Below are positions 3,012 through 42,054 of a DNA stretch of 64,000 nt, piece after piece. This DNA comes from Oxalobacter sp. GTDB lineage: Bacteria > Bacillota > Clostridia > Oscillospirales > Ruminococcaceae. The notes below the pieces were generated by a model. It was given only the letters and a program-made list of their open reading frames with translations. It was not told the origin of the DNA and made no database searches. The position numbers and the translations under genes are program-made. The stretch is taken from contig CAVEID010000009.1 of the NCBI GenBank assembly GCA_963615785.1, positions 11,733 through 75,732 on the forward strand, in the 5' to 3' direction. Each line of letters opens with the position of its first letter. Position 1 is the first letter of the stretch.

Positions 3012-3017
3012 GGCTGG

Positions 3018-7307: not shown

Positions 7308-8222
7308 GTGACTGCAACAAAAATCGCACCCCGGCAGAAAAGCCACCACATCAAGATGAGCCGGGAAGATAAAATTTACAACATCGTCGGCATCATCCTG
7401 TTCACCATCATCACGCTGCTGTGCGTGTATCCGTTCTACTACCTTATGATCTGCACCATCAGCGACCAGAAGCTGGTTGACCTGAACCAGATCATCCTGC
7501 TGCCCAAGGGCATCAACTTTGAAAACTACGTTGAAATTTTCAAGGTGCAGAATCTGGGCAATGCGGCCTTTATCTCGGTAGCGCGTACCGTGATCACCAC
7601 GGCACTCAGCCTTGTGCTGACCAGCTATATGGCCTACTTCTTCACCAAGCAGAATATGTGGAAGCGCAAGTTCTGGTATCGCTTCACCGTCATTACCATG
7701 TACTTCTCCGCAGGTATGATTCCCATCTACCTGAACAACCGGATGCTGGGCCTTGTCAATAGCTTCTGGGTCTACGTCATTCCGTCCTGCCTGTCCGTGT
7801 ACAACATGGTTCTGGTCAAGACAAACATCGAAGCCATGAGTCCGGAACTGGAAGAATCCGCTTATCTGGATGGTGCCGGTTATCTGACCCGCTTCTTCAA
7901 AATCGTGATGCCGCTGCAGACCCCCATCCTTGCCACCATTTCGCTGTTCACCGCCGTGAACCAGTGGAACGACTTCTTCACCACCAAGCTGTACATCACC
8001 AACACGAAACTCTACACCCTGCAGTATCTGCTGTACGAACTGCTCCAGCAGGTCACCGCAGCCGCCGAGCAGATCGCCGGTGAGAACCCCTATGCGACCA
8101 TCACCCCCACCGGTATCCGCCTGACCTTGACCGCTGTGGTCGTCATCCCCATCATCTGCGTCTACCCCTTCGTCCAGAAGTTCTACGTCAAGGGCCTGAT
8201 GGTCGGTGCCGTCAAGGGCTGA
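7308..8222 (+). CDS. Carbohydrate ABC transporter permease (LplC/YteP type)
   Basis: GTG start with RBS GAGGAGGA. The EAA loop is EESAYLDGAGYLTRFFKIVMPL. Adjacent to the first permease. Confidence 0.85.
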   Translation: MTATKIAPRQKSHHIKMSREDKIYNIVGIILFTIITLLCVYPFYYLMICTISDQKLVDLNQIILLPKGINFENYVEIFKVQNLGNAAFISVARTVITTALSLVLTSYMAYFFTKQNMWKRKFWYRFTVITMYFSAGMIPIYLNNRMLGLVNSFWVYVIPSCLSVYNMVLVKTNIEAMSPELEESAYLDGAGYLTRFFKIVMPLQTPILATISLFTAVNQWNDFFTTKLYITNTKLYTLQYLLYELLQQVTAAAEQIAGENPYATITPTGIRLTLTAVVVIPIICVYPFVQKFYVKGLMVGAVKG

Positions 8223-8278
8223 GAGCCTTTCTTTTGAACCAAAAATTGTGTATTATATTATAAAAGGAGAACAAGACC

Positions 8279-10012: not shown

Positions 10013-10081
10013 AAATCATAGCGGACGCAAGCTCCGGTCTGCATGATACCCTGCTGACGGAGTTGAGATCTGGATAACACA

Positions 10082-10126
10082 GAAGCCGTGTTCCGCAACC
10101 TTTTGCGGGACACGGCTTCTTCTTTT
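10082..10126 (+). terminator. Rho-independent terminator after the SBP gene
   Basis: Stem GAAGCCGTGTTCCGCAA / TTGCGGGACACGGCTTC (one G-U), loop CCTT, then TTCTTTT. Confidence 0.8.
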
Positions 10127-10140
10127 ATGAAGCAAATGAT

Positions 10141-11511: not shown

Positions 11512-11520
11512 GAGGTTCGT

Positions 11521-13602
11521 ATGGAGTTACTCACACTGCTTTCCAAACCCTCGCGCGAATTTACCCCGATCCCGTTCTGGTTCCTGAACGGCAACCTGAC
11601 CCATGACGAGATTCGCCGCCAGCTGAATGATTTCAACGCACACGGCGTATCCGGCGTGGTGCTGCATCCCCGCATCGGCCTTGCCAAACGCATCCAATAC
11701 CTCTCCAAAGAATACTTTTCCTACATCCGCACAGCGGTCAAGGAAGCTGCTGCGCTGAACATGACGGTCGTTCTGTACGATGAGGGAATGTACCCGTCCG
11801 GCTCTGCAAACGGTATGGTCACTGCTGGCCGCCCCGATCTAGTCAGTCAGGGCATCACGCTGGTGAATGAGACCCAGCCGGGGGATGAAGTCCTTGTACA
11901 GACACCGCAGGGTGTTCTGGTGGTGCGCAAGAGCGGCGGCACCATCCGCGGCATCCACTGGGGTGAAGACGATGGCGAGCCGAATGCCCCGGAAAGTGCC
12001 GACATCCTGAACCCGGAGGTCGTGCAGCGGTTCATCGGCCTGACCCACGATGCCTACTACCGTGAACTGAAAGAATACTTCGGGAATACCATCATCGGTT
12101 TCTTCACCGATGAACCCAGTATTCTGGGCCGGAACGTGGGGAATATGTTCCCGTGGACAAAGGGTTTTGCCCAGCTTTTCACCGAAGCAGGCGGCAAGCT
12201 GGAAAATCTGACCGCACTGTTTGAGAAAACCGAAAATGCCGACACCCGGCTCTATCATCAGATGATCCTTGACCGGGAGGGCGGCGTTTACTATGCGGCT
12301 CTTTCCGGCTGGTGCGAGCAGCACGGCATCTGCCTGATGGGACATCCCCATCAGAGCGATGATATTGAGGTAGAAAAATACTTCGGCATCCCCGGTCAGG
12401 ACTTGTGCCTGCGCTGGATCGCACCGGAAAAGGACTGCCTTGTGGGGCTGGATTCCACGCTGGGTAAGTGCAGCGCGGATGCGGCCCGCCTGATGAACCG
12501 CCGCCGCAATTCCAATGAGTGCTTTGGAGCCTGCAACAAGGATAACAACCCGTGGCAGCTCTCCGGCGGGGACATCAAGTGGTACACGGATTGGCTGGCC
12601 GTGCGCGGCGTCAACCTGTTCATCCCTCATGCGTTCTATTACAGCATCACCGGCAAGCGGAAGGATGAGCGTCCGCCCGATGTCGGCCCCAACAGCAACT
12701 GGTGGAAACACTATAAGCTGTGGTCTACCTATATGCGGCGGCTGTCCTGCTTGATGACTGACACGACCGCACTTCTGCCGGTGGCGGTACTGTGCCGCAA
12801 CCGCGCGCTGGAACCGGATGCTGTCCGTCCGCTCTATGAGCAGCAGGTCGGCTTCCAGTATCTGCCGGAAAGCGTCTGGAAAGATTGCCGGGTGCAGGAT
12901 GGAAAACTGTATTGCCGCGGCATGGAGTTCTCGGCGGTGATCGACCCGGAACAGCGGTTCCCGGATGCACCTGCTCTCCCCAAAGACCTCTCGACCCTTG
13001 CAGACCTTCAGTGCAGCCCGGCTGCTCCGCAGCTGCGCAGTGCGCATTTCCTGCGCGCAGGCAGTGAGTGCTGGTTCCTTGTGAACGAGGGCAACACCGA
13101 CCTCCACACCACCATCACGCTGCCCACCACCCAAAAGGTCGGACAGTATGACCTCTGGGCAGGGAAAGCGGCCCGTGCGCAGGCAAAGGATTTTGCATTG
13201 AACCTGCCCAGCCGCAGCAGCCTGCTGCTGTTCACCTGCGAGGATGCAGATTTTGCCGCTCTGCCGGAGCAGCCAAAGCCGCTACTGCTCCCGATGCCGG
13301 AGTTTACCCTGAAAAAAGCCGATGGCATTCAGGTCAAAAAGACCTATGTTGCCGAGGCGGAATACAGTGCAGAACAGGCAAACGCCGACTATCCGCTGCT
13401 GGAACTGGATGCTGAGGAAATGGCGGAACTCTGGGTCAATGGAAAATTTGCCGGAGTTTCGTTCTGGAACAAGCACCGGTTTGATTTGAAGGGCCTGCTC
13501 CATCCGGGCAGCAATGCGTTCAAGCTGGTCGTGACCGGCAGTTTGGCAAACCGTTATGGCAAACACGCCGTTCCGTATGGTTTGCAGGAGGCTTCTGTAT
13601 GA
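11521..13602 (+). CDS. Putative glycoside hydrolase of uncharacterised family (TIM-barrel-like N-terminus + beta-sandwich C-terminus; GH106-like alpha-L-rhamnosidase is a guess)
   Basis: RBS TAGGAGG. The N-terminus PIPFWFLNGNLTHDEIRRQLNDFNAHGVSGVVLHPRIGL resembles the FWFW..G....I..ql..m...G.gG opening that I associate with GH106-type enzymes. The context is pectin-degrading genes. The family assignment is not verified. Confidence 0.45.
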   Translation: MELLTLLSKPSREFTPIPFWFLNGNLTHDEIRRQLNDFNAHGVSGVVLHPRIGLAKRIQYLSKEYFSYIRTAVKEAAALNMTVVLYDEGMYPSGSANGMVTAGRPDLVSQGITLVNETQPGDEVLVQTPQGVLVVRKSGGTIRGIHWGEDDGEPNAPESADILNPEVVQRFIGLTHDAYYRELKEYFGNTIIGFFTDEPSILGRNVGNMFPWTKGFAQLFTEAGGKLENLTALFEKTENADTRLYHQMILDREGGVYYAALSGWCEQHGICLMGHPHQSDDIEVEKYFGIPGQDLCLRWIAPEKDCLVGLDSTLGKCSADAARLMNRRRNSNECFGACNKDNNPWQLSGGDIKWYTDWLAVRGVNLFIPHAFYYSITGKRKDERPPDVGPNSNWWKHYKLWSTYMRRLSCLMTDTTALLPVAVLCRNRALEPDAVRPLYEQQVGFQYLPESVWKDCRVQDGKLYCRGMEFSAVIDPEQRFPDAPALPKDLSTLADLQCSPAAPQLRSAHFLRAGSECWFLVNEGNTDLHTTITLPTTQKVGQYDLWAGKAARAQAKDFALNLPSRSSLLLFTCEDADFAALPEQPKPLLLPMPEFTLKKADGIQVKKTYVAEAEYSAEQANADYPLLELDAEEMAELWVNGKFAGVSFWNKHRFDLKGLLHPGSNAFKLVVTGSLANRYGKHAVPYGLQEASV

Positions 13603-29742: not shown

Positions 29743-30564
29743 ATGAAGATTGGCTGCCGTGCCCACGATTATGGCAAACACCCGGCGCAGGAACTGGCAT
29801 TGATTCTGCACAACGCTGGTTATCAGGCTGCACAGGTCGCCGTACCAAAGGCCATTGAAGGCATCAATGATTATCAACATATCTCGCCGGAACAGTTGGA
29901 AACCCTTCGGAGTGGGTTTGCCGCGCACGATGTAGAAATTTCTGTGCTGGGCTGCTATCAGGACTTGAGCGACCCGGACGCAGAAAAACGTGCCGCTGCT
30001 GTGCAGAATGTCTGCCGCGTTCTGGGCTGGCAGCATCTTGCAGGCGGTCGCTGCGTCGGCAGTGAAACTTCCTATCTGCATCTGGATGCAGAGGAACGCG
30101 CTGCACGGCGCGAATGGATGTTCGACAGTGTTCTCCGCATCGTGGAAGCTGCTGCAAAAGCAGACGCCATCTTTGCGGTGGAGCCGGTCTATTGGCACCC
30201 ACTGGACAGCATAGAAGTGGTTCAGCAGCTCATCGACCGCGTAGCCGACCCGGAGCATCTGCACTTCATCTTCGACCCGGCCAATGTGCTGGAAAACCAC
30301 AACATCCCCCATCAGACAAAGCTGTGGAATGACTGGCTTTCTCTGATTGGTTCTCGCATTGATGCGATTCATGTCAAAGATTTCACTTATGGTTCTACGG
30401 GAACTTACGATACTTATGGGCCTTGCCCGCTGGGAAAAGGCTGCATCCAGTATGATGCCATCTCCAAATGGCTGCATCAGCAGAACCGGGACATTCCGCT
30501 CCTTCGGGAAGAAGTGATCCTGAACTGCACCGCAGAGGACATTGCCTTTATGTCAGCCCTCTGA
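29743..30564 (+). CDS. Sugar phosphate isomerase/epimerase (xylose isomerase-like TIM barrel)
   Basis: 273 aa with an alternating beta/alpha pattern. The conserved-looking His/Asp/Glu positions (HD.., FAVEPVY, IHVKD) are typical of the AP_endonuc_2 family. Substrate unknown. Confidence 0.6.
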   Translation: MKIGCRAHDYGKHPAQELALILHNAGYQAAQVAVPKAIEGINDYQHISPEQLETLRSGFAAHDVEISVLGCYQDLSDPDAEKRAAAVQNVCRVLGWQHLAGGRCVGSETSYLHLDAEERAARREWMFDSVLRIVEAAAKADAIFAVEPVYWHPLDSIEVVQQLIDRVADPEHLHFIFDPANVLENHNIPHQTKLWNDWLSLIGSRIDAIHVKDFTYGSTGTYDTYGPCPLGKGCIQYDAISKWLHQQNRDIPLLREEVILNCTAEDIAFMSAL

Positions 30565-30618
30565 ACCCTCATTTCAAACCCATCCGCAATTTGCTTTCTT
30601 CATTTTCTCCTTCATCAT

Positions 30619-30655
30619 GCGCCCTCCCATTTGTGGGAGGGCGTCTTTGTTTTTA
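30619..30655 (+). terminator. Rho-independent terminator
   Basis: Stem CGCCCTCCCA / TGGGAGGGCG, loop TTTG, then TCTTTGTTTTT. Confidence 0.8.
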
Positions 30656-30758
30656 TCCACCTGTGATTCTTGATAGAATGAAAAATTATTGATATAGACG
30701 CTGGGAAAAGCGGCTTCTATAATGGAGCCAGAAAGAACTTCGGAAGGGAGAAACCAGC

Positions 30759-33356
30759 ATGAAAGTACATTGCTTACAAGGACGGACGGCAAGCGGCTTT
30801 GTGACCTTCGGTGGTGTCTGGGAAAGGGGCGAGGTTCCGGCTGCATCGTTCCAGCTGACAGCACCAGACGGCAAACCATTACCGCTGCAGAGCAAGCCCA
30901 TGGCGTTCTGGCCGGATGGCAGCATCAAATGGAGTGCGCATACCACCGATGCCGCACTGATGAAAGAGGGTGCGGAACTTTTGCCCACCCCCAAAGAACA
31001 GCCTGACAGCGGCATCCAGATCATAAAAGGCTCGGATGCCTATACACTGGATACCGGCGTACTCCGGCTGACCGTTCCTCTGGGAGAAAACCTGCGCTGT
31101 GATTTTCTGGCGCAGGATATTTCGGTTTCCGGACGAAAGGCCGCACGCAAGGTCTATCCGGTTTTTCTGCTGGAACGCCGGAACGAAACGGAAGATGTGC
31201 TGGAAACACGGGTGCAGAAGTTCCACGGCGTGGTTCAAAAGGCTGTTCTGGAAGAAGCAGGCCCTTTGCAGGCGACCGTTGCATTTTACGGTGAGAACAC
31301 ACCCGGCGAACGATGCTCCATGCCTTTTGTGATACGGCTCTCGGTCTGGAAGGACAGCGCAGAAATGCGCTTTGTTCACACCTTCCTGTTTGACGGTGTA
31401 GAACAGCGGGATTTCCTCAAAGGAATAGGCATCCGGTTTGAAACAGTGCTTTCCGGCACGGCGTACACCCGCCATGTGCAATATCTGCAAGAGGACAAAG
31501 TGTTCCATGAATGTCCGCAGAATCTGGATTCCCGGTTTCCACATCTTGGGCCGGAAGTCCGTCAGGCACAGCTGAACGACGAGATTTCTGCTGCAAATGC
31601 GTCAGAGGATATGAAACAGGCTGCGCAGGATATTCCCATCTGGCGGCAGTATCATTTGGTGCAGGATAGCGACCGGCATTATGCTATCTTCAAAGCGACC
31701 CATACTGCGTGCTGCCGCATCCGCGCACAGGAGGGTGCAAGGGCACCGGGCGTTATGGCACTGACCGGAGAAAATGGCGGCGTGATGGCAGGCATCCGGG
31801 ATTTCTGGCAGAAATATCCCGGTGGTCTTGCTGCGGATGCGCTGGATCAAGAGAATACGCAGCTGACCTTGTGGTTCTATTCGCCCTTGCAGGAGGCCTA
31901 CGATTTCCGGCACTATGACACCAAAAGCCATCCTATGACCTGCTACGAGGGCTTTGAAGATTTACGCCCCAGTGCCTACGGCATCGGCGTGACCAGTGAA
32001 TGCCGGGTGCAGTTCACGGACAGCCTGCCCTCCGAACAGCAGCTCCGGCAGTTTGCCAATCGATTGCAAAAGCCCCCTGTCGTTGTAGCAGACCCGGCGT
32101 ATTACCACGAAAAACGCGCATTTGGCTATTGGGGGCTTCCGCATCCCGAAACAAAGGCCGGGGAGCAGTTGGAAGCTGCCCTTGACCGGGCGTTCTCGTT
32201 CTATCAGCGCGAGGTGGAAGCACGGCATTGGTACGGCCTGTTCGACTACGGCGATGTAATGCACACCTATGACCCGGTGCGCCATTGCTGGAAGTATGAT
32301 GTTGGCGGCTATGCGTGGCAGAACACCGAACTGGTGCCGACCTACTGGCTGTGGCTCTACTTCCTGCACACCGGGCGTGAGGATGTTTTCAGCCTTGCCG
32401 AAGCCTTGAGCCGGCACGCATCCGAAGTAGACACCTACCATTTCGGCCCGCTCAAGGGGCTTGGTTCCCGCCATAATGTGCGGCACTGGGGCTGCTCCTG
32501 CAAAGAACCGCGTATCGGCATGGCGGGACACCACCGTTTTCTGTTTTATCTGACCGGGGACGCACGACTTGGCGAGGTCATGGAAGACGTGAAAGATGCC
32601 GACGTTTCTATGAGCCAGAACCCGCACAGCATGGAAAAGAGGCCGGACGGCGTTGTTGTTCCCTCTGCCCGCAGCGGGCCGGACTGGTCGAGTTATGTGT
32701 CGAACTGGATGACCCACTATGAGCGGACACTGGATGAAACCTACCGGCGCAAAATTGAGACCGGCATCCGTGACATTGCCGCCACGCCATACGGCTTTGC
32801 ATCCGGGCCGGATTATTACTATGATCCGGAAACCGGGCATCTGATCTACCACGGCGAGATTGAAAACACCCCAAACCAGCATTTGCAGATCTGCATGGGC
32901 GGGCCGCAGATCTGGCTGGAAACTGCCGATTTGCTGGAGGACGATACCTTGAAAACGCTGCTGACCCGGCTGGGAAAGTTCTATTATCTTCCGCCAGAGG
33001 AAAAGACCAGACTGACCCACGGGCAAATTGTGAATCGTCCTTTCAGCTGGCCGATGTTTGCCACGGCAGTTTCGGCATTCAGTGCGGCAAACACCCATGA
33101 TGCGGAACTTGCAAAGAAAACATGGGCTGTTCTGATGGAGAGTGTTCCGCAGAACGCTGGAACAGATGCCTTTACACCCCATTCCTATGTGAACGGTTTT
33201 GCCGCAGATGGCCCGTATCAGGAGATTCCCGGCATCTCGACCAACTGGGTATCGCAATGGTGCCTGAATGCGCTGATGTGTCTGGAATTTATCCCGGATG
33301 CAATGCCGCAGGACGGTTTTATAGAACTGAAGCCACCCGTTTCCTCCAACCAATAA
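30759..33356 (+). CDS. Large (865 aa) uncharacterised cytoplasmic protein; possibly YetA-like / exo-rhamnogalacturonan lyase (PL26)-related
   Basis: RBS GGAAGGGAG. No signal peptide and no recognisable catalytic motif by eye. It is the last gene of the pectin module. The YetA/PL26 link is recollection only. Confidence 0.4.
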   Translation: MKVHCLQGRTASGFVTFGGVWERGEVPAASFQLTAPDGKPLPLQSKPMAFWPDGSIKWSAHTTDAALMKEGAELLPTPKEQPDSGIQIIKGSDAYTLDTGVLRLTVPLGENLRCDFLAQDISVSGRKAARKVYPVFLLERRNETEDVLETRVQKFHGVVQKAVLEEAGPLQATVAFYGENTPGERCSMPFVIRLSVWKDSAEMRFVHTFLFDGVEQRDFLKGIGIRFETVLSGTAYTRHVQYLQEDKVFHECPQNLDSRFPHLGPEVRQAQLNDEISAANASEDMKQAAQDIPIWRQYHLVQDSDRHYAIFKATHTACCRIRAQEGARAPGVMALTGENGGVMAGIRDFWQKYPGGLAADALDQENTQLTLWFYSPLQEAYDFRHYDTKSHPMTCYEGFEDLRPSAYGIGVTSECRVQFTDSLPSEQQLRQFANRLQKPPVVVADPAYYHEKRAFGYWGLPHPETKAGEQLEAALDRAFSFYQREVEARHWYGLFDYGDVMHTYDPVRHCWKYDVGGYAWQNTELVPTYWLWLYFLHTGREDVFSLAEALSRHASEVDTYHFGPLKGLGSRHNVRHWGCSCKEPRIGMAGHHRFLFYLTGDARLGEVMEDVKDADVSMSQNPHSMEKRPDGVVVPSARSGPDWSSYVSNWMTHYERTLDETYRRKIETGIRDIAATPYGFASGPDYYYDPETGHLIYHGEIENTPNQHLQICMGGPQIWLETADLLEDDTLKTLLTRLGKFYYLPPEEKTRLTHGQIVNRPFSWPMFATAVSAFSAANTHDAELAKKTWAVLMESVPQNAGTDAFTPHSYVNGFAADGPYQEIPGISTNWVSQWCLNALMCLEFIPDAMPQDGFIELKPPVSSNQ

Positions 33357-33360
33357 GATG

Positions 33361-33410
33361 AAAAGATCCCATGTCCAGACCAAAATATGGTGTAGGACAT
33401 GGGATTTTTC
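33361..33410. terminator. Bidirectional terminator between convergent genes
   Basis: Stem ATCCCATGTCC / GGACATGGGAT flanked by AAAAG and TTTT. Confidence 0.7.
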
Positions 33411-33435
33411 GTAGATGCACTCGGATAGAAACAGC

Positions 33436-34761
33436 TTATATCAACTGAAACTTTGTCCATTTCTGAGATTTATAACGCCAAATGAAAATTGCACCGCGGA
33501 ATACAAGATCCATACTCATACCGATGGCAACACCGATGACACCCCAGCCGAAATACAGACCAAACAGGGCCGAGAAAAGCAGCCGTGCGCCAATGGTCAA
33601 CGAAATGGAAACTACCATCGTAAAGGTGACATCACCTGCTGCGCGCAGGCCATTGCCTAAGCTCCCGGCAAAAGGATAGGCAAGACCGTTAAAGATATTG
33701 TTGATAAGTACCAGCCAGATGACCAGCGACTTTGCCTCCGGCGAAATGGCCGAATACCGCACGATGAGCGGTGTCAGGGTGAATACAAAGGCGTTCCACA
33801 AAACCGATAGTACCAGCGTGATACGATTCAGCTTTTTGAAATAAAAATTGGCGGCATCAATATCCCGTGCGCCCATACACTGCCCAATGACCGTAGTATA
33901 CACGGGAGCCATTGCCAGCCCCATAATAGACGCTAGCGACCAGATGCTTTGCGCCACACCATTTGCTGCAATTTGGTAGGTGCCGAACAATGCGACCATG
34001 CTGGAAAGGGCTACCTTGACCAATTGATGTACCCCGTTTTCCAGACCGTTTGGCAGCGCAATCCCCATGATTTTCTTCTGTGTACCACCATCCCATGCCA
34101 GAATATCCGGGCCGTGATACTGCACGGCGTTTGTATTCTGAAAGCAGAAAGCGGTAACGGCTACCGCTGAAAGGGTGCGAGAAATGAGCGACGGCCAAGC
34201 CACACCAGCCGCTCCCAGATGCAGTCCGAACACACCCATACAGTTGCCCACCACATTGATGATATTGGTCACAAGGGAGATGTACATGGTTACATTGGTC
34301 TTTCCAATGCTGCGGCAGAGGGCAGCACCGGCATCATAAACCGCCAAGGCTGGAAGCGACAGTGTGGTGATAAACAGATAGGATTCGCAAGCCGCCATGA
34401 CATCCGGCTCGATCTGCCCGAACAGAAGCCGCAGGAGCGGCTTGCGGAAACACAGGATGAGTATGGTCAAGGCCGCTGAAATCAGGCAGGAAATCGTCAG
34501 CAGCTGACCGGCAGCTCTGGACGCCATCTTTTTATCGTCACAGCCGATATACTGGCTGATAATGACAGCACCGCCCGCCGAAAGAGCCGTAAACAGGAAA
34601 ATCATCACCGTGTTAAAGGACGTTACCAGCGATACGCCCGAAACATCCGCTTCGCTGGAAAAGCTGACCACAAAAGTGTCCGCGATTCCCACGAACATCA
34701 GAAGAAACTGTTCAATGAACAGTGGAAAGATCAGATTTCTTAAATCCTTGTTGGAAAACAT
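33436..34761 (-). CDS. MATE family efflux transporter
   Basis: Starts at MFSNKDLRNLIFPLFIEQFLLMFVGIADTFVVS (ATG at 34761, 2 nt after the TetR stop). About 12 TM. The longer listed ORF (to 34887) overlaps the TetR gene. Confidence 0.8.
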   Translation of the reverse strand: MFSNKDLRNLIFPLFIEQFLLMFVGIADTFVVSFSSEADVSGVSLVTSFNTVMIFLFTALSAGGAVIISQYIGCDDKKMASRAAGQLLTISCLISAALTILILCFRKPLLRLLFGQIEPDVMAACESYLFITTLSLPALAVYDAGAALCRSIGKTNVTMYISLVTNIINVVGNCMGVFGLHLGAAGVAWPSLISRTLSAVAVTAFCFQNTNAVQYHGPDILAWDGGTQKKIMGIALPNGLENGVHQLVKVALSSMVALFGTYQIAANGVAQSIWSLASIMGLAMAPVYTTVIGQCMGARDIDAANFYFKKLNRITLVLSVLWNAFVFTLTPLIVRYSAISPEAKSLVIWLVLINNIFNGLAYPFAGSLGNGLRAAGDVTFTMVVSISLTIGARLLFSALFGLYFGWGVIGVAIGMSMDLVFRGAIFIWRYKSQKWTKFQLI

Positions 34762-34763
34762 TT

Positions 34764-35315
34764 TTACGCCTCGTATTCCCTCACAAGAGCTTTCTGGCAG
34801 CGGTTCAGCATCCGCTGAGCCTTGCTCATATCCCAATCGCAGTAGTCTGTCGCAATCATGGAGGCAATGCCGTGCGCCTGCATCCAAAGCTGGTCGTGCA
34901 GTTCATCGGCGGCGGCTCGATCAAGATGGTACTGCTCCATCAGTTCGTCTATGGTACGGTCAATTATGGGCAAAAGCACCTGTTTCATTTCGGCAAATGC
35001 CTGTGACCTCATGAATAAGAACCGGAACAGTTCCGGCTGCTGCCTGGCAAGACAAATATACTCGATGCCGTACAGATGCACCCGTGTTGAACCGCACTCT
35101 TTCTGCATCAGCTCGACAAACTTGTTCACTGCTGTTGGAATCAGTTCTTTGCGCAGTGCATCCATATTGTCAAACGACAGATAAATCGGCTGGGTAGAGC
35201 ATCCCAGTTCTGCGGCAAGGCTTTTTACATTGACAGCTTCCGTTCCGCCTTCCATCAGCACCCGGAGGGCTGCACCAAGGATCATTTCTTTTGTTACCTG
35301 TTTCTTTGCAGGCAT
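34764..35315 (-). CDS. TetR/AcrR family transcriptional regulator
   Basis: N-terminal HTH ILGAALRVLMEGGTEAVNVKSLAAELGCSTQPIYLSFDNMDAL. 183 aa. Operonic with the MATE gene. Confidence 0.85.
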   Translation of the reverse strand: MPAKKQVTKEMILGAALRVLMEGGTEAVNVKSLAAELGCSTQPIYLSFDNMDALRKELIPTAVNKFVELMQKECGSTRVHLYGIEYICLARQQPELFRFLFMRSQAFAEMKQVLLPIIDRTIDELMEQYHLDRAAADELHDQLWMQAHGIASMIATDYCDWDMSKAQRMLNRCQKALVREYEA

Positions 35316-35514
35316 TGTTCTGTCACTTCTTTCAATAAATCAATTTATCAATAACCGCATTTATTTTATTCTTCTGCTGGATTTTGTCAAGAGGTTTGTA
35401 CAGCGTTTACGGTTCCGTACACCAACCTCGCAATCATAGATTCAATAATGTGAATATTAAGTTTGCGCCATATAACCTTTCTGCAATATTTGATAAAATG
35501 CAAACTTATTGAAA

Positions 35515-35543
35515 TTGACGGCGACTGTGGCAGAGTTTATACT
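35515..35543 (+). promoter_or_regulatory. Sigma-A type promoter upstream of the OmpR-like gene
   Basis: TTGACG - 17 nt - TATACT. Confidence 0.5.
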
Positions 35544-35638
35544 TATAAAAGATTATTTATCTAAAAATATTTAGTTTGAAAGGCAGCGAATCTTCTAAAA
35601 CGGCAACATTATCAAAAGAACCCGGAGGTTAAAACTAA

Positions 35639-36262
35639 ATGGCATCTCATGTATTGGGAATTGGCTATACACAAAGTCCGGCCAGCATCGCAAAAATCAG
35701 CATTTGGAAACAGCTTGGACTGGAACTGGACTGTACAGATGATTTTGACCATGCAGCTTGTATGCTCAGCAACAGGAATTATACCTGTGTTGCGGTTTGT
35801 ACAAGGGCTGTTTCAGAGGAACAGATTGAAACGTTGCAGAAAATCCAGATGATTCCAATCATCGTTACTTCTCCTGATATGATTTGTAGCTATGCACAGC
35901 CTACGGAGAGCGAAGTGCGCATTCCTGAAGAATGTCCGTTGCAATGCGAGCACAAATCTACTGTGATCAAGGTCAAAAATCTGCAAATCTGCCTTGAACA
36001 GCGTTCGGTGAGCATTGATGGCGTGGCTATTGATTTGACAGAAAAGGAATTTGATATTCTGGCATTACTTCTGCTGAACCAGAAGCAGGTATTCACGCAT
36101 GAAATGATGATGGATGCCATCTGGCATAACGATTTTGCTTTTTACTCTCGTAATGCACTGTCCAGCCATATCAGCAACCTTAAAAAGAAACTGAAACATT
36201 TCTCGGATGTTGCAGACCAGATCAAGAGCATCCGTGGCATCGGCTATAAGTTTGAACCGTAA
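35639..36262 (+). CDS. Atypical orphan OmpR/PhoB-type winged-helix regulator with degenerate (pseudo-)receiver
   Basis: The C-terminus LTEKEFDILALLLLNQKQVFTHEMMMDAIW....SHISNLKKKL......IKSIRGIGYKF is Trans_reg_C-like. The N-terminal roughly 100 aa lacks the DD..D..K phospho-acceptor pattern. No kinase is adjacent. Confidence 0.65.
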   Translation: MASHVLGIGYTQSPASIAKISIWKQLGLELDCTDDFDHAACMLSNRNYTCVAVCTRAVSEEQIETLQKIQMIPIIVTSPDMICSYAQPTESEVRIPEECPLQCEHKSTVIKVKNLQICLEQRSVSIDGVAIDLTEKEFDILALLLLNQKQVFTHEMMMDAIWHNDFAFYSRNALSSHISNLKKKLKHFSDVADQIKSIRGIGYKFEP

Positions 36263-36373
36263 GGATTTTCTTGAGCAAACCTTATGCAAGACTAAACCGT
36301 ATCGAAAAAGTCATTTGGTATCATCTACCTGAAAATGGGGAGAACTTTTCCCGATTCACATGATGATACGCCA

Positions 36374-36410
36374 AGAGCAGCGAAACGTCATGTTCCGCTG
36401 CTCTTTTTCT
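36374..36410 (+). terminator. Rho-independent terminator after the OmpR-like gene
   Basis: Stem AGAGCAGCG / CGCTGCTCT followed by TTTTCTTTG. Confidence 0.7.
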
Positions 36411-36452
36411 TTGCAAAAAGAAAGACACCCGATGCTCATGGCATCCGATGTC

Positions 36453-36788
36453 TTACTTTGCATGGTTCAGTTCGTCGATTCGCTGACAGATGTCGATCAG
36501 TTTTTCTGATTCGCTCTCTGTCTTTCCGCGAAAGAAGTCATAAACACACTTTGGCACTGCATTCGGCGTTGCCGTTTCCGGGAACACGAGTGCATCCAGA
36601 CTGATGTTCAGTTCCTTTGCCAGAAGAATGACCGTTTCCATTTTTGGATTGCTGCGGCAGATCTCCGCCTGCATGACAGTGCGGTGGCTCATGCCCAGCT
36701 TTTCGGCAAGCTGCTTCTGGGTCAGACCTCTGGCTTCTCGCTCTGCACGAACTTTTGCACCAAACTCATCCAGTGGATTGTTCATCAA
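36453..36788 (-). CDS. XRE family helix-turn-helix transcriptional regulator
   Basis: The HTH_3 pattern is REARGLTQKQLAEKLGMSHRTVMQAE..NPKMETVILLAKELNISLDAL. 111 aa. Confidence 0.8.
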   Translation of the reverse strand: MMNNPLDEFGAKVRAEREARGLTQKQLAEKLGMSHRTVMQAEICRSNPKMETVILLAKELNISLDALVFPETATPNAVPKCVYDFFRGKTESESEKLIDICQRIDELNHAK

Positions 36789-37342
36789 AGCTCACCTCGT
36801 ATTCATTGTAATTCGTCCCGGCAGTTCAATAAATCACCACAAGAGTGACTTGAAGTGATCTCAAGATTACTTGCCGAACACGGGCAACCCGAAAAGAGGT
36901 GATAAAGGTGAAAATCTATATAAATCTGCTATTTAGGTTCTACAAAGAACCGAACAATATTCAAATTAAAAATATCTTATGACGGTAAGCTGCAACTCTT
37001 GAAGTGAGTTGCAGCTTATTTGTTTGTTATCAAAACTCACACAAAAAATATCGAATGCCTGAGATGCATTAAGGGCTGAGGATACTTATACCGCTTTCCA
37101 TTTTCGGATGGAAAACAGTGTCGGTACCCTTTTCTTTGGTGCATCTCTTTTTTTGTTGCCAAGAAAAGCCCGCAGGCTGTCCCGCAGTGAAGTGTCCTCA
37201 ACCTCCGCATCTGGCGGAAAGGACACTTCATGTTTCTTTTTTTATCAGGAGCGGCCGGATGCCGTTTTCGGTCTCCGGTCACTCCTGTTCTTTTACATAT
37301 TTATCCGCCATTCACTTTTTACCGATACGGAGGACTGCTCAA

Positions 37343-37570
37343 ATGGATGAGTTGAATCCTACGGTGCGCGAACAGGAGATCTACGAGGAGATGGAACTGA
37401 CCCCGGAAATGATCAAGTCCATCCGAACCCTCTGTGCGACCTGTCTGCGGCATTTCGTAGAAGCAAAGGCTTTCAAAATCGCTCTCGTGCCGAGCGCAGA
37501 CAAGAGCATGGATGTATGCACCGTCTGCCAGACCCGGCGCGGTCACGATTACGTTGTCATGCACCGCTGA
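37343..37570 (+). CDS. Small (75 aa) cysteine-rich zinc-ribbon-like hypothetical protein
   Basis: ATG at 37343 with RBS ACGGAGGA. Two CxxC pairs are present (CATC ... CTVC). The upstream part of the listed ORF 37118..37570 crosses a terminator hairpin and is unlikely to be coding. Confidence 0.5.
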   Translation: MDELNPTVREQEIYEEMELTPEMIKSIRTLCATCLRHFVEAKAFKIALVPSADKSMDVCTVCQTRRGHDYVVMHR

Positions 37571-37688
37571 TGCCGGTGCTTTATTCCAATCGCCGGGGAG
37601 GTGATGCGTACTATATAAATAAAATCGCTTTCATACTTTAACAGAAGCCCGCTGCCTAGGAGGTACAGCGGGCTTCTTACATATCCAG

Positions 37689-38375
37689 ATGGAGGTTTCG
37701 CAATTGGAATCTACTTTGAAATTCCAACGCGGAGACATCTACTTCATTCGACTGGACAGCAGCACAGGTTCCGAACAAAGCGGAACCCGCCCTGCGGTCA
37801 TCCTGCAAAATGATGTGGGAAACACCTATTCACCGACTTTGATCATTGCGACTTTGACAAGTAAGACAGAAAAGAAAGCTACGCAGCCGACCCATTGTCT
37901 GGTGGAACTGGAAAAACTGGAGCCTTCCATCGTTCAGGCCGAACAGATCTTCACCATCGACAAGAGCCGTGTCCAAAATTTTGTCGGACACCTCACCCCG
38001 GAAGAAATGAACCGGGTCGATGATGCTGTGAAGATCAGCCTTGCCCTGAACCCGATGGGGAGCATCCAGAAGCTGAAACCAATCATCCGCTCCACGGCGG
38101 CTTACGCACCGCCTGAAACGGTTGATGGAAAGCCGCCTGTCTATCCCTACACACCCATCAAATCCGATTTTGAGGACGCAGGGACGGTCGAAGAAATGAT
38201 GTTATACACCGAACTGCAATCCGCTGTTCATGCCATGATCCAGCGGCTCGAATACAGCTTCACCTTTAATCCCAGCCTGCTCACCAGCCCGAAGCGTAAG
38301 AAGCAGGTGGCTGAGATTTTGACCGAAGCTGAAAAATACATTTGGCGAATCAAGGAGGAAATGCGATGCGCCTGA
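37689..38375 (+). CDS. MazF/PemK (EndoA-like) endoribonuclease domain fused to an unassigned ~105-aa C-terminal domain
   Basis: Residues about 10-120 (RGDIYFIRLDSSTGSEQSGTRPAVILQNDVGNTYSPTLIIATLTSK..PTHCLVE..QIFTIDKSRV..LTPEEMNRVDDAVKISLAL) align along the full length of B. subtilis EndoA as I recall it. The rest (NPMGSIQKLKP...IWRIKEEMRCA) has no recognisable motif. An alternative TTG start lies at 37704 behind GGAGG. Confidence 0.75.
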   Translation: MEVSQLESTLKFQRGDIYFIRLDSSTGSEQSGTRPAVILQNDVGNTYSPTLIIATLTSKTEKKATQPTHCLVELEKLEPSIVQAEQIFTIDKSRVQNFVGHLTPEEMNRVDDAVKISLALNPMGSIQKLKPIIRSTAAYAPPETVDGKPPVYPYTPIKSDFEDAGTVEEMMLYTELQSAVHAMIQRLEYSFTFNPSLLTSPKRKKQVAEILTEAEKYIWRIKEEMRCA

Positions 38376-39187
38376 AAAACGACACGAACAATTTTGCCGC
38401 TTCTTTCAATATTACCCCGCCTTACCAGATGATGGTGATTCACAGTAGTAAGCTGATCTATCCTCGTGAGGTCTATCAGCGGCGAGTACGTCGCAGTCAG
38501 GTGGAACTGATTGCTGCCGACTTCAACGAGTATATCGCCAACGAGCCGAAAGTCAGTTTCCGCAACGGCAGATATTATGTGGTGGACGGTCAGCACACCA
38601 TCGAGGGGCGCATCCTCCGCAATGGCGGCAAGGATTTGCCGATTCTCTGCAAGGTCTATACCGGCTTGACGATGGAGCAGGAAGCCCTGTTCTTTGCTGA
38701 ACAGAACGGCCACTCCGCACCTCTGACGGCGGGCATCAAGCTGCGCGCCAAGGTCGTGGGCGGCGATGCTCCTTCCAAAGCGTTTCTCGCAGCCACCAAC
38801 CGGGTTGGTCTGGCTTTCAACTATGACAGCCTGCAGCTGAGCGACTACCGCATCAGCTGCGTGGGTACCGCTCTCAAGCTGTATAACCAGATGGGCGAGA
38901 AAATCTACTGTGAGGCCCTGCGGCTCATCGTTGCCGCATGGGAGGGCAAGCCCGATTCGTTCCGGGCATCTGTCCTGCGGGGCGTGATGCACTTCGTGGA
39001 ACTGTATCACGGAGAGTTCAGCGAGGAACGGCTCATCCGTGCGCTGGGCAGTGTCCATCCTATGGAGATCTACCGTGTCGGCAGGGATAACCCCGCCAAG
39101 CTGCCCGGATGGAAGAAATATGTTTTCCCCATCTACATGGCCTACAACGGAAAAGGGCGCAAGGACGCTCTGCCGATGAAGTTCTAA
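38366..39187 (+). CDS. ParB/Srx-fold N-terminal domain protein with DGQH(T/R) motif (DndB/DGQHR-like or phage ParB-like nuclease family)
   Basis: ATG at 38366 behind AAGGAGGA overlaps the upstream stop by 10 nt. It contains YQRRVRRSQVELIAADF......YYVVDGQHTIEG, the ParB-N/DGQHR signature. The C-terminal half is helical and unassigned. Confidence 0.6.
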   Translation: MRLKNDTNNFAASFNITPPYQMMVIHSSKLIYPREVYQRRVRRSQVELIAADFNEYIANEPKVSFRNGRYYVVDGQHTIEGRILRNGGKDLPILCKVYTGLTMEQEALFFAEQNGHSAPLTAGIKLRAKVVGGDAPSKAFLAATNRVGLAFNYDSLQLSDYRISCVGTALKLYNQMGEKIYCEALRLIVAAWEGKPDSFRASVLRGVMHFVELYHGEFSEERLIRALGSVHPMEIYRVGRDNPAKLPGWKKYVFPIYMAYNGKGRKDALPMKF

Positions 39188-39207
39188 AACATATTCTCTC
39201 TGCCAAG

Positions 39208-39238
39208 GGGCATCTGCAAGCTGCGGATGCCCTTTATT
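39208..39238 (+). terminator. Rho-independent terminator after the ParB-like gene
   Basis: 11-bp stem GGGCATCTGCA / TGCGGATGCCC (one G-U), loop AGC, then TTTATT. Confidence 0.65.
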
Positions 39239-39552
39239 ACATATTGACCAGCTGCAAAGTTCTGAATTTCGGCAGCTGGAAATAGACTGAAGTGACGCAC
39301 ATAACAACTATGTGAACCGAAAAGGGGGATTCGATGGAAAAAACTCCTTTTATTCTGTGCGAAAAATTTCGTTCTGACAACAACGAACAGCGCAAAGAAC
39401 ATTTTCAAAAGGAATTTGAACGATATATCGTCGATGGTCTGTCCAACACCGTGCCTTCTAAATCATGTGCCTGATTTGGCATCCTTGAATTTGAAAGAGA
39501 AACGCGGTATGTTGCGCATGGACGATTGTGCACAAAAAGAAAGGTGCAAATC

Positions 39553-41118
39553 ATGAAAGCAGCAATCTATTGCCGCCTGAGCAAAGAAGATGAATATAAA
39601 ATTGGCGAATCGGAGAGTATTCAGAACCAGAAGTCAATGCTGATCCAGTACGCCATTGAGAAAGGATTTGATATTTACCAGATTTATTCGGATGAGGACT
39701 ACTCCGGCATTGACCGGAACCGTCCGGCGTTCAATGCGATGATACAAGCTGCAAGCGAACATAAGTTTGACGTGGTGCTGGCAAAGACTCAATCCCGTTT
39801 CACCCGTGACATGGAACTCGTGGAAAAATATCTGCACGGAAAGTTCATTGAGTGGGGCATTCGGTTCATTGCTGTCGTTGACCATGTGGATACCAATGAT
39901 ACTGCGAACAAAAAATCCCGCCAGATCAATGGTCTGATCAACGAGTGGTATCTGGAAGATCTGTCCACCAATGTCCGTTCCGTGCTTGACCATAAGCGGA
40001 AAGAAGGCTTGTTTATCGGCTCTTTTGCACGGTATGGATACTGTAAAGATCCAAATGCAAAGGGAAAACTTATCATCGACCCAGAAGCGGCCGAAGTGGT
40101 AAGACGGATTTTCTCCATGGCTCTTAGTGGAATCGGTGCGCACAAAATTGCACGGATTCTGAATGATGAAAAAATTCCAAGCCCAACAGCCTATAAGCAG
40201 TCGCACGGCATCCATTACCACATTGCAGCGAAAAATCCAAATGCAGACCTTTGGAGCAGCCCCACTGTATATCAGATGCTGCACAATCAGCTTTATGTCG
40301 GAGATATGGTGCAGGGGCGGCATAAGAAGGTGAGTTATAAGTCTGAAAAGACAATTTGGCTTCCGCAATCGCAGTGGATCGTTGTTGAGAACACCCACGA
40401 AGCCATCATTGACCGGGATACGTTTGAAACGGTTCAGATGATGATGGCAGGACGTGCCCGGAGCAATGGAAATGGAACTATTCATCCACTGGCTGGCAAA
40501 ATGATTTGCGGATGCTGTGGTAATAAGTTGGAGCAGGCTGGCAGGAGAAGCAATGTAAATGGAAGCCGAGTTCGGTATGTGCGATGCCGGATGCATCAAC
40601 GCGCACCGGAACAGTGCAGCAATAAGACTTGCACAAATCTGGACGATTTGCAGGTGCTTGTGTTGGAGCGCATCCGGGCGTATGTGGCAGATTATTTTGA
40701 CCCTGAAAAAGTGACCATTCCAGAGCAGGATGACCCGATCCAGCAGCGAGAGCAAGCCAAGCGTGACGAGCTGAAACGGTTGAAAAGCGAAGTAGAACGG
40801 CGGCGCAAGGCCATGCAGGAACTGTATCTGGATAAGGTGTCTGGCCTGATTGATACTGTCCAGTTCTCTGAAATGAACCAGACCTTTCTGGAAGAAGTGA
40901 AAAAGGCAGAAACGCGAATCAATACATTGGAAGCGGAACTGGAACAACAGCAGGAAGAAACCAGTGTGGTGCAGACGCAGATGCAGCGTGTCCGTGAACT
41001 GGCGCAGGTTTCGCATCTGACCCGCGAACTTGTTGTACTGCTGGTTCATCGTGTCGTTGTTGGCACAAAAGATTCGCTTACCGGAGAGCAAAAAATCACG
41101 ATTGAATGGAATTTCTAA
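39553..41118 (+). CDS. Large serine recombinase (resolvase catalytic domain + recombinase domain + zinc ribbon + coiled coil)
   Basis: MKAAIYCRLSKEDE (catalytic Ser), SRFTRD, recombinase-domain motifs (YGY.KD, LHNQLYVGD), a Cys cluster (CGCCGNKL...C..C) and a C-terminal coiled coil (ELKRLKSEVERRRKAMQELY..). Confidence 0.9.
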   Translation: MKAAIYCRLSKEDEYKIGESESIQNQKSMLIQYAIEKGFDIYQIYSDEDYSGIDRNRPAFNAMIQAASEHKFDVVLAKTQSRFTRDMELVEKYLHGKFIEWGIRFIAVVDHVDTNDTANKKSRQINGLINEWYLEDLSTNVRSVLDHKRKEGLFIGSFARYGYCKDPNAKGKLIIDPEAAEVVRRIFSMALSGIGAHKIARILNDEKIPSPTAYKQSHGIHYHIAAKNPNADLWSSPTVYQMLHNQLYVGDMVQGRHKKVSYKSEKTIWLPQSQWIVVENTHEAIIDRDTFETVQMMMAGRARSNGNGTIHPLAGKMICGCCGNKLEQAGRRSNVNGSRVRYVRCRMHQRAPEQCSNKTCTNLDDLQVLVLERIRAYVADYFDPEKVTIPEQDDPIQQREQAKRDELKRLKSEVERRRKAMQELYLDKVSGLIDTVQFSEMNQTFLEEVKKAETRINTLEAELEQQQEETSVVQTQMQRVRELAQVSHLTRELVVLLVHRVVVGTKDSLTGEQKITIEWNF

Positions 41119-41720
41119 GTCGGCAAGCAGTTTAACTGCTCCGTTGAGTTATTTTCGTCAGCCCAAGTCGGATAGACTTCGCTGGACGCGACATTGGCGA
41201 TATAATCCCGGAAGGAGACGGTCACATTGCGGGCGGATGCCGCAGGCTTGCCCAGATGAACTGTGATGTTTTTGGGGATGATGACCTTGCTCAGCACCCG
41301 GGGCACGCAATTCTCCACGGGCTCCGGGCCGCTGCCGCCGTCCCCGGTGAACAGGGAGTGCTCGGGGATGACCACGGGCGGGTTGGCCACGTCGCGGCCC
41401 TCCTCGGTGTCAGGGATCATCTCCGGCTGGGCCAGCGTGACCTGCCCGGCGAAGATCTGCACGCCCTCAATGCGCACGGTGCGGTAGCCCTCCTTTGCGG
41501 CGGTGAGGTTCACCACGGCATAGGGACGGGTGGTGTTGTCTTCCTGCAGAGAAAGGGCGCAGGCCGGTGCGTCGATGGTGACATCGGCGGCGCTGCCTTC
41601 GCTGTCAGTGGTGCGCTGAACGGTGAAGCCATCGCCGCTGACCGTGACCACTACCCCTGCAATGGGCGAGGACTGGCGGGCACCGAAGGCCTGAATGCGT
41701 AAAATGCCGGTAGTTTTCAT
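41115..41720 (-). pseudogene. 5' fragment of a SleC-like peptidoglycan hydrolase / cortex-lytic-enzyme-family gene, truncated at the recombinase element junction
   Basis: ATG at 41720 behind AAGGAG. A carboxypeptidase-regulatory-like domain is followed by ITVHLGKPAASARNVTVSFRDYIANVASSEVYPTW. Homologues that I recall continue PEEALRANI..., but here the ORF reads ADENNSTEQLNCLPT-stop and overlaps the recombinase stop codon. Confidence 0.6.
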
Positions 41721-41852
41721 AGGCAGATGCTCCTTTGCTGTGAAAGTGAAATGCTTCTCCCACAGCGTATTCCGCAGAGGCACCGGGCGTGAATAGGGGC
41801 TTTCTTTTTCCGGCGGGGGAGTGTATACTGGAGACAGATAATAGCGCAGGGC

Positions 41853-41999
41853 AGGCGCGCCCACTCCGTCCTGCTGACGCTCGCCAGACGTCCAGCGTGG
41901 GTTAGCCCTCGCACTCCCCGGGAGAAAGTGTTGTCGATTATAATACTAGCCCGACCTTCAGACATGGCATCGCGTCATCCTGCCGGAGTGGGCGCGCCT
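41853..41999. repeat. 147-nt element closed by a perfect 16-bp inverted repeat (candidate structured RNA or miniature palindromic element)
   Basis: AGGCGCGCCCACTCCG at 41853-41868 pairs with CGGAGTGGGCGCGCCT at 41984-41999. Further interior pairings are GACGC/GCGTC and GCCA/TGGC. The centre is AT-rich with a palindromic TATAAT. Confidence 0.5.
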
Positions 42000-42054
42000 A
42001 CCGTTCAAATGTTTGCTTTCTTTTAAGATAAGAAGTGTAAAGGAGAATACAGCA

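Follow-up and report, generated by a model that had tools for sequence, protein, structure and literature searches.

To our knowledge, the RNase MazF, a textbook type II toxin, is always discussed together with its antitoxin MazE. Type II antitoxins typically carry an N-terminal DNA-binding domain and a C-terminal neutralizing tail. R25 and T48 are the catalytic residues of the toxin EndoA in the Bacillus subtilis MazF-RNA structure, and UACAU is the cleavage motif of EndoA-type MazF. Here, we analyzed a 64,000-nucleotide (nt) stretch of DNA (the window) from an assembly deposited as Oxalobacter sp. and placed by GTDB in the Ruminococcaceae (GCA_963615785.1, contig CAVEID010000009.1, positions 11,733 to 75,732), in which two overlapping genes encode a MazF-family protein with a long C-terminal extension (gene 1) and a DUF6551 protein with a predicted ParB/sulfiredoxin (Srx) fold (gene 2). 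By sequence comparison, this pair is the form taken in the Faecalibacterium lineage by an operon that is widespread on integrative elements of gut Firmicutes. The operon comprises a leader with the pemK RNA (RF02913), an optional small zinc (Zn)-ribbon open reading frame (ORF), MazF, a ParB-like partner protein designated ParBp, and DUF6551, and it lies directly upstream of recombinase genes.

With the canonical EndoA/EndoAI (MazEF) system the locus shares an EndoA-type MazF domain bearing equivalents of the catalytic Arg and Thr. It differs in that gene 1 lacks an upstream RHH or AbrB antitoxin, encodes 223 amino acids (aa) including a linker and a ParBp tail, and is coupled to DUF6551, and in that the fusion module resides on integrative elements in several copies per genome. 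The pemK RNA motif is said to have come, as a candidate cis-regulatory RNA, from the comparative screen of Weinberg et al. 2017; as far as could be found, its Rfam family covers the RNA alone, and no description of the MazF, ParBp, and DUF6551 module behind it was found. As in the ParB, Noc, and KorB clamps, the N-terminal domain of gene 2 is ParB/Srx-like, but gene 2 has a DGQHT motif and is accompanied by neither parA nor a recognizable parS. Unlike in DUF6551 pairs elsewhere, its partner is an RNase fusion and not a second ParB-like protein. CapRelSJ46 is a fused toxin-antitoxin (TA) in which the toxin domain is covalently joined to a regulatory C-terminal domain; its toxin family is unrelated to that of gene 1, whose C-terminal domain has its origin in a ParB-like partner, with a second gene coupled to it. 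The element-stabilizing TA systems mosAT of SXT and sgiAT of SGI1 have ordinary protein antitoxins. They share with the present module the integrative-element location and a proposed role against loss after excision, whereas the protein families differ. In ICEclc, the HicA-like protein Shi, encoded within a parA-parB operon, arrests donor growth (PMC6812849). That case is similar in having an RNase-toxin-like protein without a cognate antitoxin in a par-like operon of an integrative element, with growth arrest of the cells whose element is active; however, Shi is HicA-like rather than MazF, the system belongs to a proteobacterial host and includes a ParA, and it shows neither a fusion nor sequence homology to gene 1 or gene 2. 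The literature searched yielded no description of a MazF-ParBp-DUF6551 module, nor of MazF/PemK linked to ParB-like/DUF6551 proteins, and gene 1, gene 2, and the small Cys-containing ORF upstream of them (Cys ORF) were without a match in PADLOC-DB v2 at an E value of <=0.1. An initial annotation, made from the letters of the sequence, had proposed an undescribed system here; this stands for the proteins but not for the leader RNA of the family, which Rfam already lists.

Residues 13 to 118 of gene 1 match the Pfam family PemK_toxin (PF02452) with an E value of 1.7e-29 and 102.6 bits against a cutoff of 23.1. The nearest solved structures are those of B. subtilis YdcE/EndoA (1ne8 and 4mdx) and S. 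aureus MazF (E value, ~2e-25). The domain is ~45% identical to YdcE/EndoA and colinear with it across GSEQ.G.RP, QND.GN..SPT, and ISLAL, in agreement with the initial reading of a complete EndoA/MazF-like domain. The catalytic residues are kept on alignment: R34 and T57 of gene 1 are the equivalents of EndoA R25 and T48, and both are invariant across 43 fusion genes. Judged by these alignments, gene 1 is a true member of the MazF family. Translation more likely starts at TTG 37704 (223 aa) than at ATG 37689, because a GGAGG ribosome-binding site (37691 to 37695 in the window) followed by TTG 7 to 8 nt on is kept in all clades, whereas the ATG is not, and because its relatives in the databases, which number in the hundreds, have a length of 223 aa; NCBI names one of them "mRNA interferase EndoA."

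The extension of gene 1 (aa 121 to 228, ~105 to 108 residues) had been described as devoid of recognizable motifs. It indeed matched no Pfam family, but its end has relatives: the last 57 residues (aa ~168 to 224) are colinear with the final 57 residues of ParBp. The two tails found each other in phmmer searches of the local sequence set at an E value of ~1e-7 in both directions, and a profile-profile comparison by hhalign gave a probability of 97.7% and an E value of 1.7e-12 over 57 columns. Because of this homology, gene 1 is MazF joined in frame to the tail at the C terminus of ParBp, whose ParB-N and middle parts are gone. Since the extension ends in the ParBp tail domain, a role as a docking adaptor is more likely than one as a new antitoxin domain. 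A single-sequence search with the extension against 1.84 billion representatives returned just same-clade fragments and chimeras and no new architectures; the MazF fusion is thus lineage restricted. A PDB sequence search with the tail profile gave no meaningful match, and exact-sequence look-ups of the window proteins found no identical entry. One match to the extension with 26% identity (P0370) was rejected as an apparent off-frame artifact. In an AlphaFold2 (AF2) model of the fusion protein P0128, the tail was drawn as two long helices with a pLDDT of <50, a helical-hairpin shape of low confidence.

Gene 2 starts in the final 10 nt of gene 1, giving a 10-nt overlap, and its length, its start behind a Shine-Dalgarno sequence inside gene 1, and its coupling agree with what had been read from the DNA at the outset. 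The product covers the entire DUF6551 profile (PF20188, positions 1 to 242 of 242) with an E value of 5.7e-139 and 461.9 bits against a gathering score of 26.8, and it matches PHROG 1033, "ParB-like partition protein." An AF2 model computed from 61 sequences (pLDDT, 77; pTM, 0.71) retrieved with Foldseek the structures of ParB-CDP (6sdk), Noc (7ol9), Myxococcus xanthus ParB-CTPgammaS (7bnr), PadC (6ryk), and sulfiredoxin (6ky4), at probabilities of 0.9 to 1.0 but with E values of just ~3e-3 and low global template modeling (TM) scores. The best viral models in BFVD were phage DUF6551-type proteins (TM score, 0.70 to 0.72), and the remoter matches were N-domains of GmrSD and DndB-like "sulfur modification" proteins. 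A PDB sequence search with gene 2 gave no meaningful match. On the strength of the profile and the model, gene 2 is a true DUF6551 protein with a predicted ParB/Srx fold. The fold proposed initially is thus retained, but the DGQHR/DndB label attached to it had to be dropped: the score against TIGR04172 was 15.2 bits versus a cutoff of 450, the motif reads DGQHT, and no dnd genes occur near gene 2 in the window ORF listing. A phage protein with the ParB-CTPase fold and DUF6551 binds nucleotide in vitro in a differential radial capillary action of ligand assay (DRaCALA) (bioRxiv 10.1101/2025.10.10.680097); MazF or a toxin is nowhere mentioned in that work.

When 120 DUF6551 loci were compared (80 from IMG/VR, two fecal contigs, and loci from genomes), the start of DUF6551 was found to overlap the stop codon of the upstream gene by 4 to 14 nt in 115. 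What this upstream gene is depends on the DUF6551 lineage, being always ParBp where DUF6551 is <=53% identical to the window protein and always a MazF fusion where the identity is >=72%. ParBp, the partner outside Faecalibacterium, is a protein of 300 to 420 aa with a ParB-N-like N terminus; it carries the PHROG label ParB-like partition protein, and its Staphylococcus homologue matches Pfam ParB_N and TIGR00180. A plain MazF of ~125 aa is encoded in the same operon in 58 of the 59 ParBp-type loci with adequate flanks, the sole exception being L132. In 21 loci the plain MazF gene precedes ParBp and is often coupled to it, and in 37 it is found ~80 nt downstream of DUF6551. This constant presence at a variable position argues for a functional linkage, and MazF belongs to the ancestral operon as a separate gene. 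A recombinase follows in 61 of 65 loci. Genes 1 and 2 show the features by which the module is defined, namely, the 10-nt coupling, the tail domain, the MazF domain, and a serine recombinase downstream. Rather than the self-contained two-gene module of the initial annotation, the pair is a derived form of a wider, pemK-led MazF-ParBp-DUF6551 operon.

A scan of one genome per species yielded 45 loci encoding the full-length fusion, almost all of them in Faecalibacterium and often at contig ends. Single genomes hold two to four or more diverged copies (e.g., F. prausnitzii UT1 has three and ATCC 27768 has four). In all 40+ Faecalibacterium-type loci holding enough sequence, the Cys ORF is followed by genes 1 and 2 with the identical overlap, so that the arrangement is not due to chance, and the neighborhood survey of the fusion loci found strict co-occurrence of genes 1 and 2 elsewhere, as would be expected of the pairing first noticed in this window. 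The recombinase after the fusion varies, being either Xis plus a tyrosine integrase by a tRNA gene or one of several unrelated large serine recombinases. The islands carrying the module are ~6 to 10 kb long, contain no conjugation genes, and adjoin a recombinase. The commonest fusion variant (P0032), found in 374 blocks of the assembly collection, sits on an island of ~10 kb inserted beside plsY, with genes for a histidine kinase, a LytTR protein, an HTH protein, a BTAD regulator, a sigma-like protein, the Cys ORF, the fusion, DUF6551, and a serine recombinase. Metagenomes of the human gut contain the fusion family in great abundance, with thousands of members in single clusters at 90% identity.

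An AbrB- or RHH-type antitoxin of the MazE/EndoAI kind was absent from the ORFs flanking genes 1 and 2, as had been pointed out from the start. In tblastn searches with an EndoAI-like RHH protein, the ordinary MazF loci L047 to L051 matched, whereas the window and every module locus had no match; as a control, ordinary EndoA-type loci from the same scan have an overlapping RHH antitoxin. Likewise, no MazE-like ORF was found beside the plain MazF genes of the ParBp-type operons. Gene 1 fails the defining operon feature of mazEF, i.e., an adjacent antitoxin gene, and the noncanonical layout seen at first sight (an extended toxin gene in first place, coupled to a ParB-fold partner on a recombinase-borne island) is confirmed. 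The 72-aa Cys ORF is present by tblastn in nearly all fusion loci and also upstream of ParBp in some other clades (L089, L125, and L070 types), and it has no match in Pfam, PADLOC, NCBIfam, PHROG, or PDB. It was considered as a universal antitoxin and rejected, because it is confined to some operon types and absent from many that contain MazF. At L111 (5223 to 5519) and similar ParBp-DUF6551-MazF loci, a 98-aa ORF overlaps the stop codon of the plain MazF gene by 4 nt and is itself followed by tandem serine recombinases. Neither PHROG nor NCBIfam has a match for this ORF, which may encode a recombination directionality factor or a partner in toxin-last order.

Across the 43 fusion genes, the ratio of nonsynonymous to synonymous substitution rates (dN/dS) was 0.106 for the MazF domain, 0.095 for the linker, 0.061 for the tail, and 0.127 for DUF6551. 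By this measure, every segment is under purifying selection, the tail being the most constrained. Decay of the MazF domain was rejected, since its dN/dS value and invariant R34 and T57 indicate that the RNase is not decaying. Two loci, L010 and L080, have identical linker, tail, and DUF6551 sequences, whereas their MazF domains differ by ~35%; this contrast shows recombination at the MazF/linker boundary.

The pemK RNA forms the 5′ leader of the operon at 60 to 74 bits against a gathering score of 34.8, whatever the gene order (for example, at L002 7411 to 7475, L144 2412 to 2475, L111 2890 to 2953, and L015 7466 to 7530). With an nhmmer profile built from the matches, it was detected upstream in 65 of 78 loci and never in MazF-less phage loci or ordinary MazF loci. 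Since neither the phage pairs without MazF nor ordinary mazEF-type loci have it, the regulon of this RNA appears to be the module. In the window it was not detected, either in positions 34000 to 42000 at an E value of <=0.1 or by nhmmer in the entire 64 kb. Three strong hairpins are present in the window copy (Table 1), each followed by UUACAUAU, with TACAT at 37294, 37678, and 39238. The one in the leader is probably an intrinsic terminator or attenuator, situated downstream of the pemK RNA in intact loci. In the one that separates the Cys ORF from gene 1, compensatory changes preserve the stem in other clades (L015, L017, L021, L037, and L009) although the sequences differ, and the loop is often AGGAGG. 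The third corresponds to the terminator that had been placed after gene 2 at 39208 to 39238. The 2-kb module contains 5 TACAT sites versus 1.05 expected, and TACAT follows the 3′ hairpin in 36 of 41 distinct fusion-clade tails versus a background of 7%. The presence of UACAU, the EndoA-type site, after each hairpin suggests that the toxin may process its own mRNA.

The G+C content falls from ~0.56 to 0.42 to 0.49 across ~35 to 41 kb of the window. This stretch holds a Trans_reg_C regulator, the divergent XRE regulator, the 72-aa ORF, genes 1 and 2, and the serine recombinase. To its left lie chromosomal carbohydrate-utilization genes, for which reason a large conjugative element on this side was considered and rejected, and to its right lies the prolyl-tRNA synthetase gene. 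Given these chromosomal flanks, the element is a small island of ~6 kb and not conjugative. An ORF of 249 aa without a Pfam match (41115 to 41864, minus strand) shares 4 nt with the 3′ end of the serine recombinase gene. Insertion of the island may have truncated a host gene here, the other half of which was not found. L002 is a sister locus that has the chromosomal left flank in common with the window at 95 to 96% identity. By blastn, positions 30530 to 37241 of the window correspond to 1 to 6709 of L002, and positions 37240 to 39189 correspond to 7550 to 9498. The L002 segment missing from the window encodes a sigma-70-region-4-like protein (Sigma70_r4), which we take to be reminiscent of Tn916 orf7, as well as the pemK RNA. 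From this alignment, the window copy has lost the sigma-like gene and the pemK RNA leader by a precise deletion.

Table 1. Features of the MazF-DUF6551 locus and its island in the window
Feature	Position	Strand	Basis or remark
XRE-family HTH regulator, divergent	36453..36788	-	Pfam HTH_3, E value 7.6e-14; also in L002
Deletion junction, ~840 bp missing relative to sister loci	37240..37243		blastn and junction alignment; TTTT microhomology
Leader hairpin, followed by U-run and UACAU	37246..37287	+	Free energy (dG) -30.8 kcal/mol, z -7.2; same hairpin in L002
Zn-ribbon-like ORF (Cys ORF), 72 aa, CxxC...CxxC...GxDY	37352..37570	+	Conserved upstream of gene 1 in the Faecalibacterium clade
Hairpin between Cys ORF and gene 1	37643..37677	+	dG -24.3 kcal/mol, z -5.2; followed by UACAU 37678-37682
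Gene 1, MazF::ParBp-tail fusion	37704..38375	+	223 aa from TTG 37704; 228 aa from ATG 37689
EndoA-type MazF/PemK RNase domain, aa 13-120	37725..38048	+	Pfam PF02452, PDB matches, R34 and T57
Conserved Pro-rich linker, aa 121-167	38049..38189	+	Matches no family; many columns invariant
C-terminal domain, aa 168-228	38190..38372	+	Homology to the C terminus of ParB-N-like partners
Shine-Dalgarno AAGGAGGA of gene 2, within gene 1	38352..38359	+	Direct sequence reading; 6 nt before ATG
Gene 2, DUF6551, 273 aa	38366..39187	+	N-terminal ParB/sulfiredoxin-fold domain, then helical domain; ATG 38366
DGQHT motif of gene 2	38585..38599	+	Phage members have DGQHR at the equivalent place
3′ terminator hairpin, followed by UUUAUUACAUAU (UUUAUUA)	39205..39235	+	dG -22.6 kcal/mol, z -3.4
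Large serine recombinase	39526..41118	+	Pfam Resolvase, Recombinase, Zn ribbon, and DUF4368

Several observations concern the elements that carry related modules. Behind most ParBp-type modules from IMG/VR (L089 to L154) stand large serine recombinase genes, two or three in tandem, and many of these "viral" contigs seem to be small integrative elements and not phages. On one metagenome contig (L159), two related islands, running from a sigma-like gene to a serine recombinase, stand in tandem (112 to 3153 and 8740 to 13450). A tRNA gene is located just past the recombinase end in five loci (L002 11695 to 11778, L070 8840 to 8927, L003 11626 to 11698, L015 11122 to 11196, and L025 11300 to 11387), consistent with tRNA attachment sites; a tyrosine integrase adjoins the tRNA gene in L002, L025, and L070, whereas L003 has a serine recombinase instead. 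Six single polypeptides of 473 to 493 aa (P0128, P0132, P0152, P0157, P0200, and P0203) join MazF and the extension to DUF6551. They were not accepted as a conserved fusion, being singletons with differing frameshift or deletion junctions near the stop codon of gene 1, and are probably sequencing or assembly variants. Multidomain DUF6551/MazF "fusions" with RepA_N, ParA, TraG, TopB, and other domains are also singletons with different junctions and were treated as assembly or frameshift chimeras. Among such gene calls (P0029, P0101, P0242, P0271, P0122, P0127, and P0201), module proteins are joined to a ParB-like nuclease, DUF4315, topoisomerase III, an ArdC-like protein, RepA_N, ParA, and TraG. 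These chimeras are likely misassemblies across repeated elements, and they hint that some module copies reside in conjugative elements.

How might the two proteins work together? The reading we favor is that MazF is docked by the tail of gene 1 to DUF6551 and that DUF6551 in turn regulates the RNase in the service of island retention or growth control; we consider it plausible, if a little short of probable. The tail would be the piece of ParBp that binds DUF6551, because it is the sole part of ParBp retained in the fusion, the most constrained segment, and always abuts the start of a coupled DUF6551 gene. The products of genes 1 and 2 would then assemble cotranslationally, so that a MazF dimer is tethered to DUF6551, and the latter would act as a ParB-type nucleotide-binding and probably DNA-binding switch that holds or gates the RNase. 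A change in the state of the element, such as excision, loss, or a drop in expression, would release the RNase and arrest growth. This arrest would favor retention of a small nonreplicating island, an addiction-like role. The position of the module beside a recombinase in small nonconjugative islands and its multiple diverged copies fit such a role in addiction or growth control tied to excision, for which Shi of ICEclc offers a precedent. A second layer of control may operate on the RNA, through the pemK leader and terminator and possibly through MazF cutting its own mRNA at the UACAU sites.

Several points weigh against this proposal. Phages have ParBp-DUF6551 pairs without MazF, and antitoxin duty therefore cannot be the ancestral role of DUF6551; in annotated phages, each DUF6551 gene is preceded by a coupled gene of ~300 aa, and the cases include the "ParB" of Staphylococcus phage IMEP5, gp58 of mycobacteriophage Girafales, and a hypothetical protein in Faecalimonas phages. 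The clade of gene 2 has DGQHT where the phage members have DGQHR, so that nucleoside triphosphate (NTP) binding by this clade is not assured. Addiction of the postsegregational killing (PSK) type requires a labile neutralizer. Pairwise distances compared in mirror-tree style gave Spearman coefficients of 0.62 for tail and DUF6551 and 0.46 for tail and MazF, which favors a tail-DUF6551 unit weakly. The AF2 model of the natural frameshift fusion P0128 had a pLDDT of <50 over the entire gene 1 part and gave no interface. As for the window copy itself, the pemK leader is deleted together with the sigma-like gene, and no recognizable sigma-70 promoter was seen on the plus strand between 36700 and 39600; this copy may hence be poorly expressed or even silent.

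The main rival to docking for island retention keeps the same physical arrangement and changes the trigger and the role. According to this explanation, the module serves abortive infection or defense: DUF6551, a DGQH-type ParB/Srx domain akin to the N-domains of GmrSD, SspE, or DndB, detects DNA that is foreign or modified, or else a shift in the nucleotide pool, and frees the tethered MazF to stop growth of the infected cell. The Foldseek matches of gene 2 include N-terminal domains of GmrSD and DndB-like proteins. Mobile elements typically carry defense cargo at the recombinase end, where the module lies, in several diverged copies per genome, and the domain in front of the conserved adaptor varies by lineage (ParB-N versus MazF) in a way that resembles effector swapping. 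However, the ancestral operon has a separate MazF gene, so the fusion resembles a deletion rather than an effector swap. Moreover, neither protein matches any PADLOC model, the DGQHR/DndB threshold is not reached, and the phage ParBp-DUF6551 pair lies in an early lytic operon or by an integrase, which fits element DNA metabolism or regulation better. We therefore consider a defense function unlikely, if worth keeping in mind.

Two further explanations strike us as improbable. In one, gene 1 is a fused TA of the CapRel type, whose MazF dimer is neutralized by the linker, the tail, or both folding back on it; the ancestral ParBp would have been the antitoxin, binding DNA with its N terminus and the toxin with its C terminus, as in the usual build of type II antitoxins, and DUF6551 would be a trigger or accessory. 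The highly conserved linker (dN/dS, 0.095) and the 21 loci with MazF directly upstream of ParBp, coupled or nearly so in a toxin-first TA layout, speak for it. Yet MazF lies downstream of DUF6551 and away from ParBp in 37 loci, phage and element loci alike have the tail, coupled to DUF6551, regardless of where MazF stands, and a permanently self-neutralized toxin would not keep invariant catalytic residues, barring a release step; the confidence of the gene 1 model is too low to reveal docking. In the other explanation, MazF is controlled only by RNA or a small protein, i.e., by the pemK leader and terminator, by self-cleavage at UACAU, or by a Zn-ribbon antitoxin, while DUF6551 and the tail serve an unrelated function in element DNA, such as excision or circle handling, and the fusion is a tolerated deletion product that is not functionally coupled to DUF6551. 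That the pemK RNA tracks the presence of MazF and is missing from MazF-less phage pairs agrees with this, as do the hairpins each followed by UACAU, the enrichment of TACAT in the module and its 3′ tails, and the classical antitoxin-first position of the Cys ORF in the fusion clade. Against it stand the many MazF-containing operon types without the Cys ORF, as well as the intact gene 1 of the window, which persists without the pemK RNA, though this copy may simply be silent. Furthermore, a fusion overlapping DUF6551 that has remained under strong purifying selection across clades just 70 to 80% identical is hardly accidental.

A broader claim can be built on docking of MazF to DUF6551, namely, that the module represents a new class of toxin control. 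In this class, a DUF6551 nucleotide switch would replace the antitoxin and be recruited to MazF by a portable tail, either on ParBp or fused to the toxin; the pemK leader and self-cleavage would provide feedback, the state of the element would be coupled to growth arrest, and the systems would be among the most abundant in Faecalibacterium. Taken as a whole, this remains conjectural, and we think it somewhat unlikely that every part of it holds.

Taken together, these results describe a large MazF family without MazE, in which MazF is wired instead to a pair of ParB-like proteins and to a leader RNA dedicated to it. Nature's own MazF::tail fusion provides a ready experimental tool, as it pinpoints the 57 residues of ParBp that matter. 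If DUF6551 indeed gates the RNase, this would be the first function for DUF6551 and for the pemK RNA motif, and toxin control would join the tasks of ParB-type nucleotide switches. Such gating would also provide a handle on the persistence of small integrative islands in a key gut commensal.

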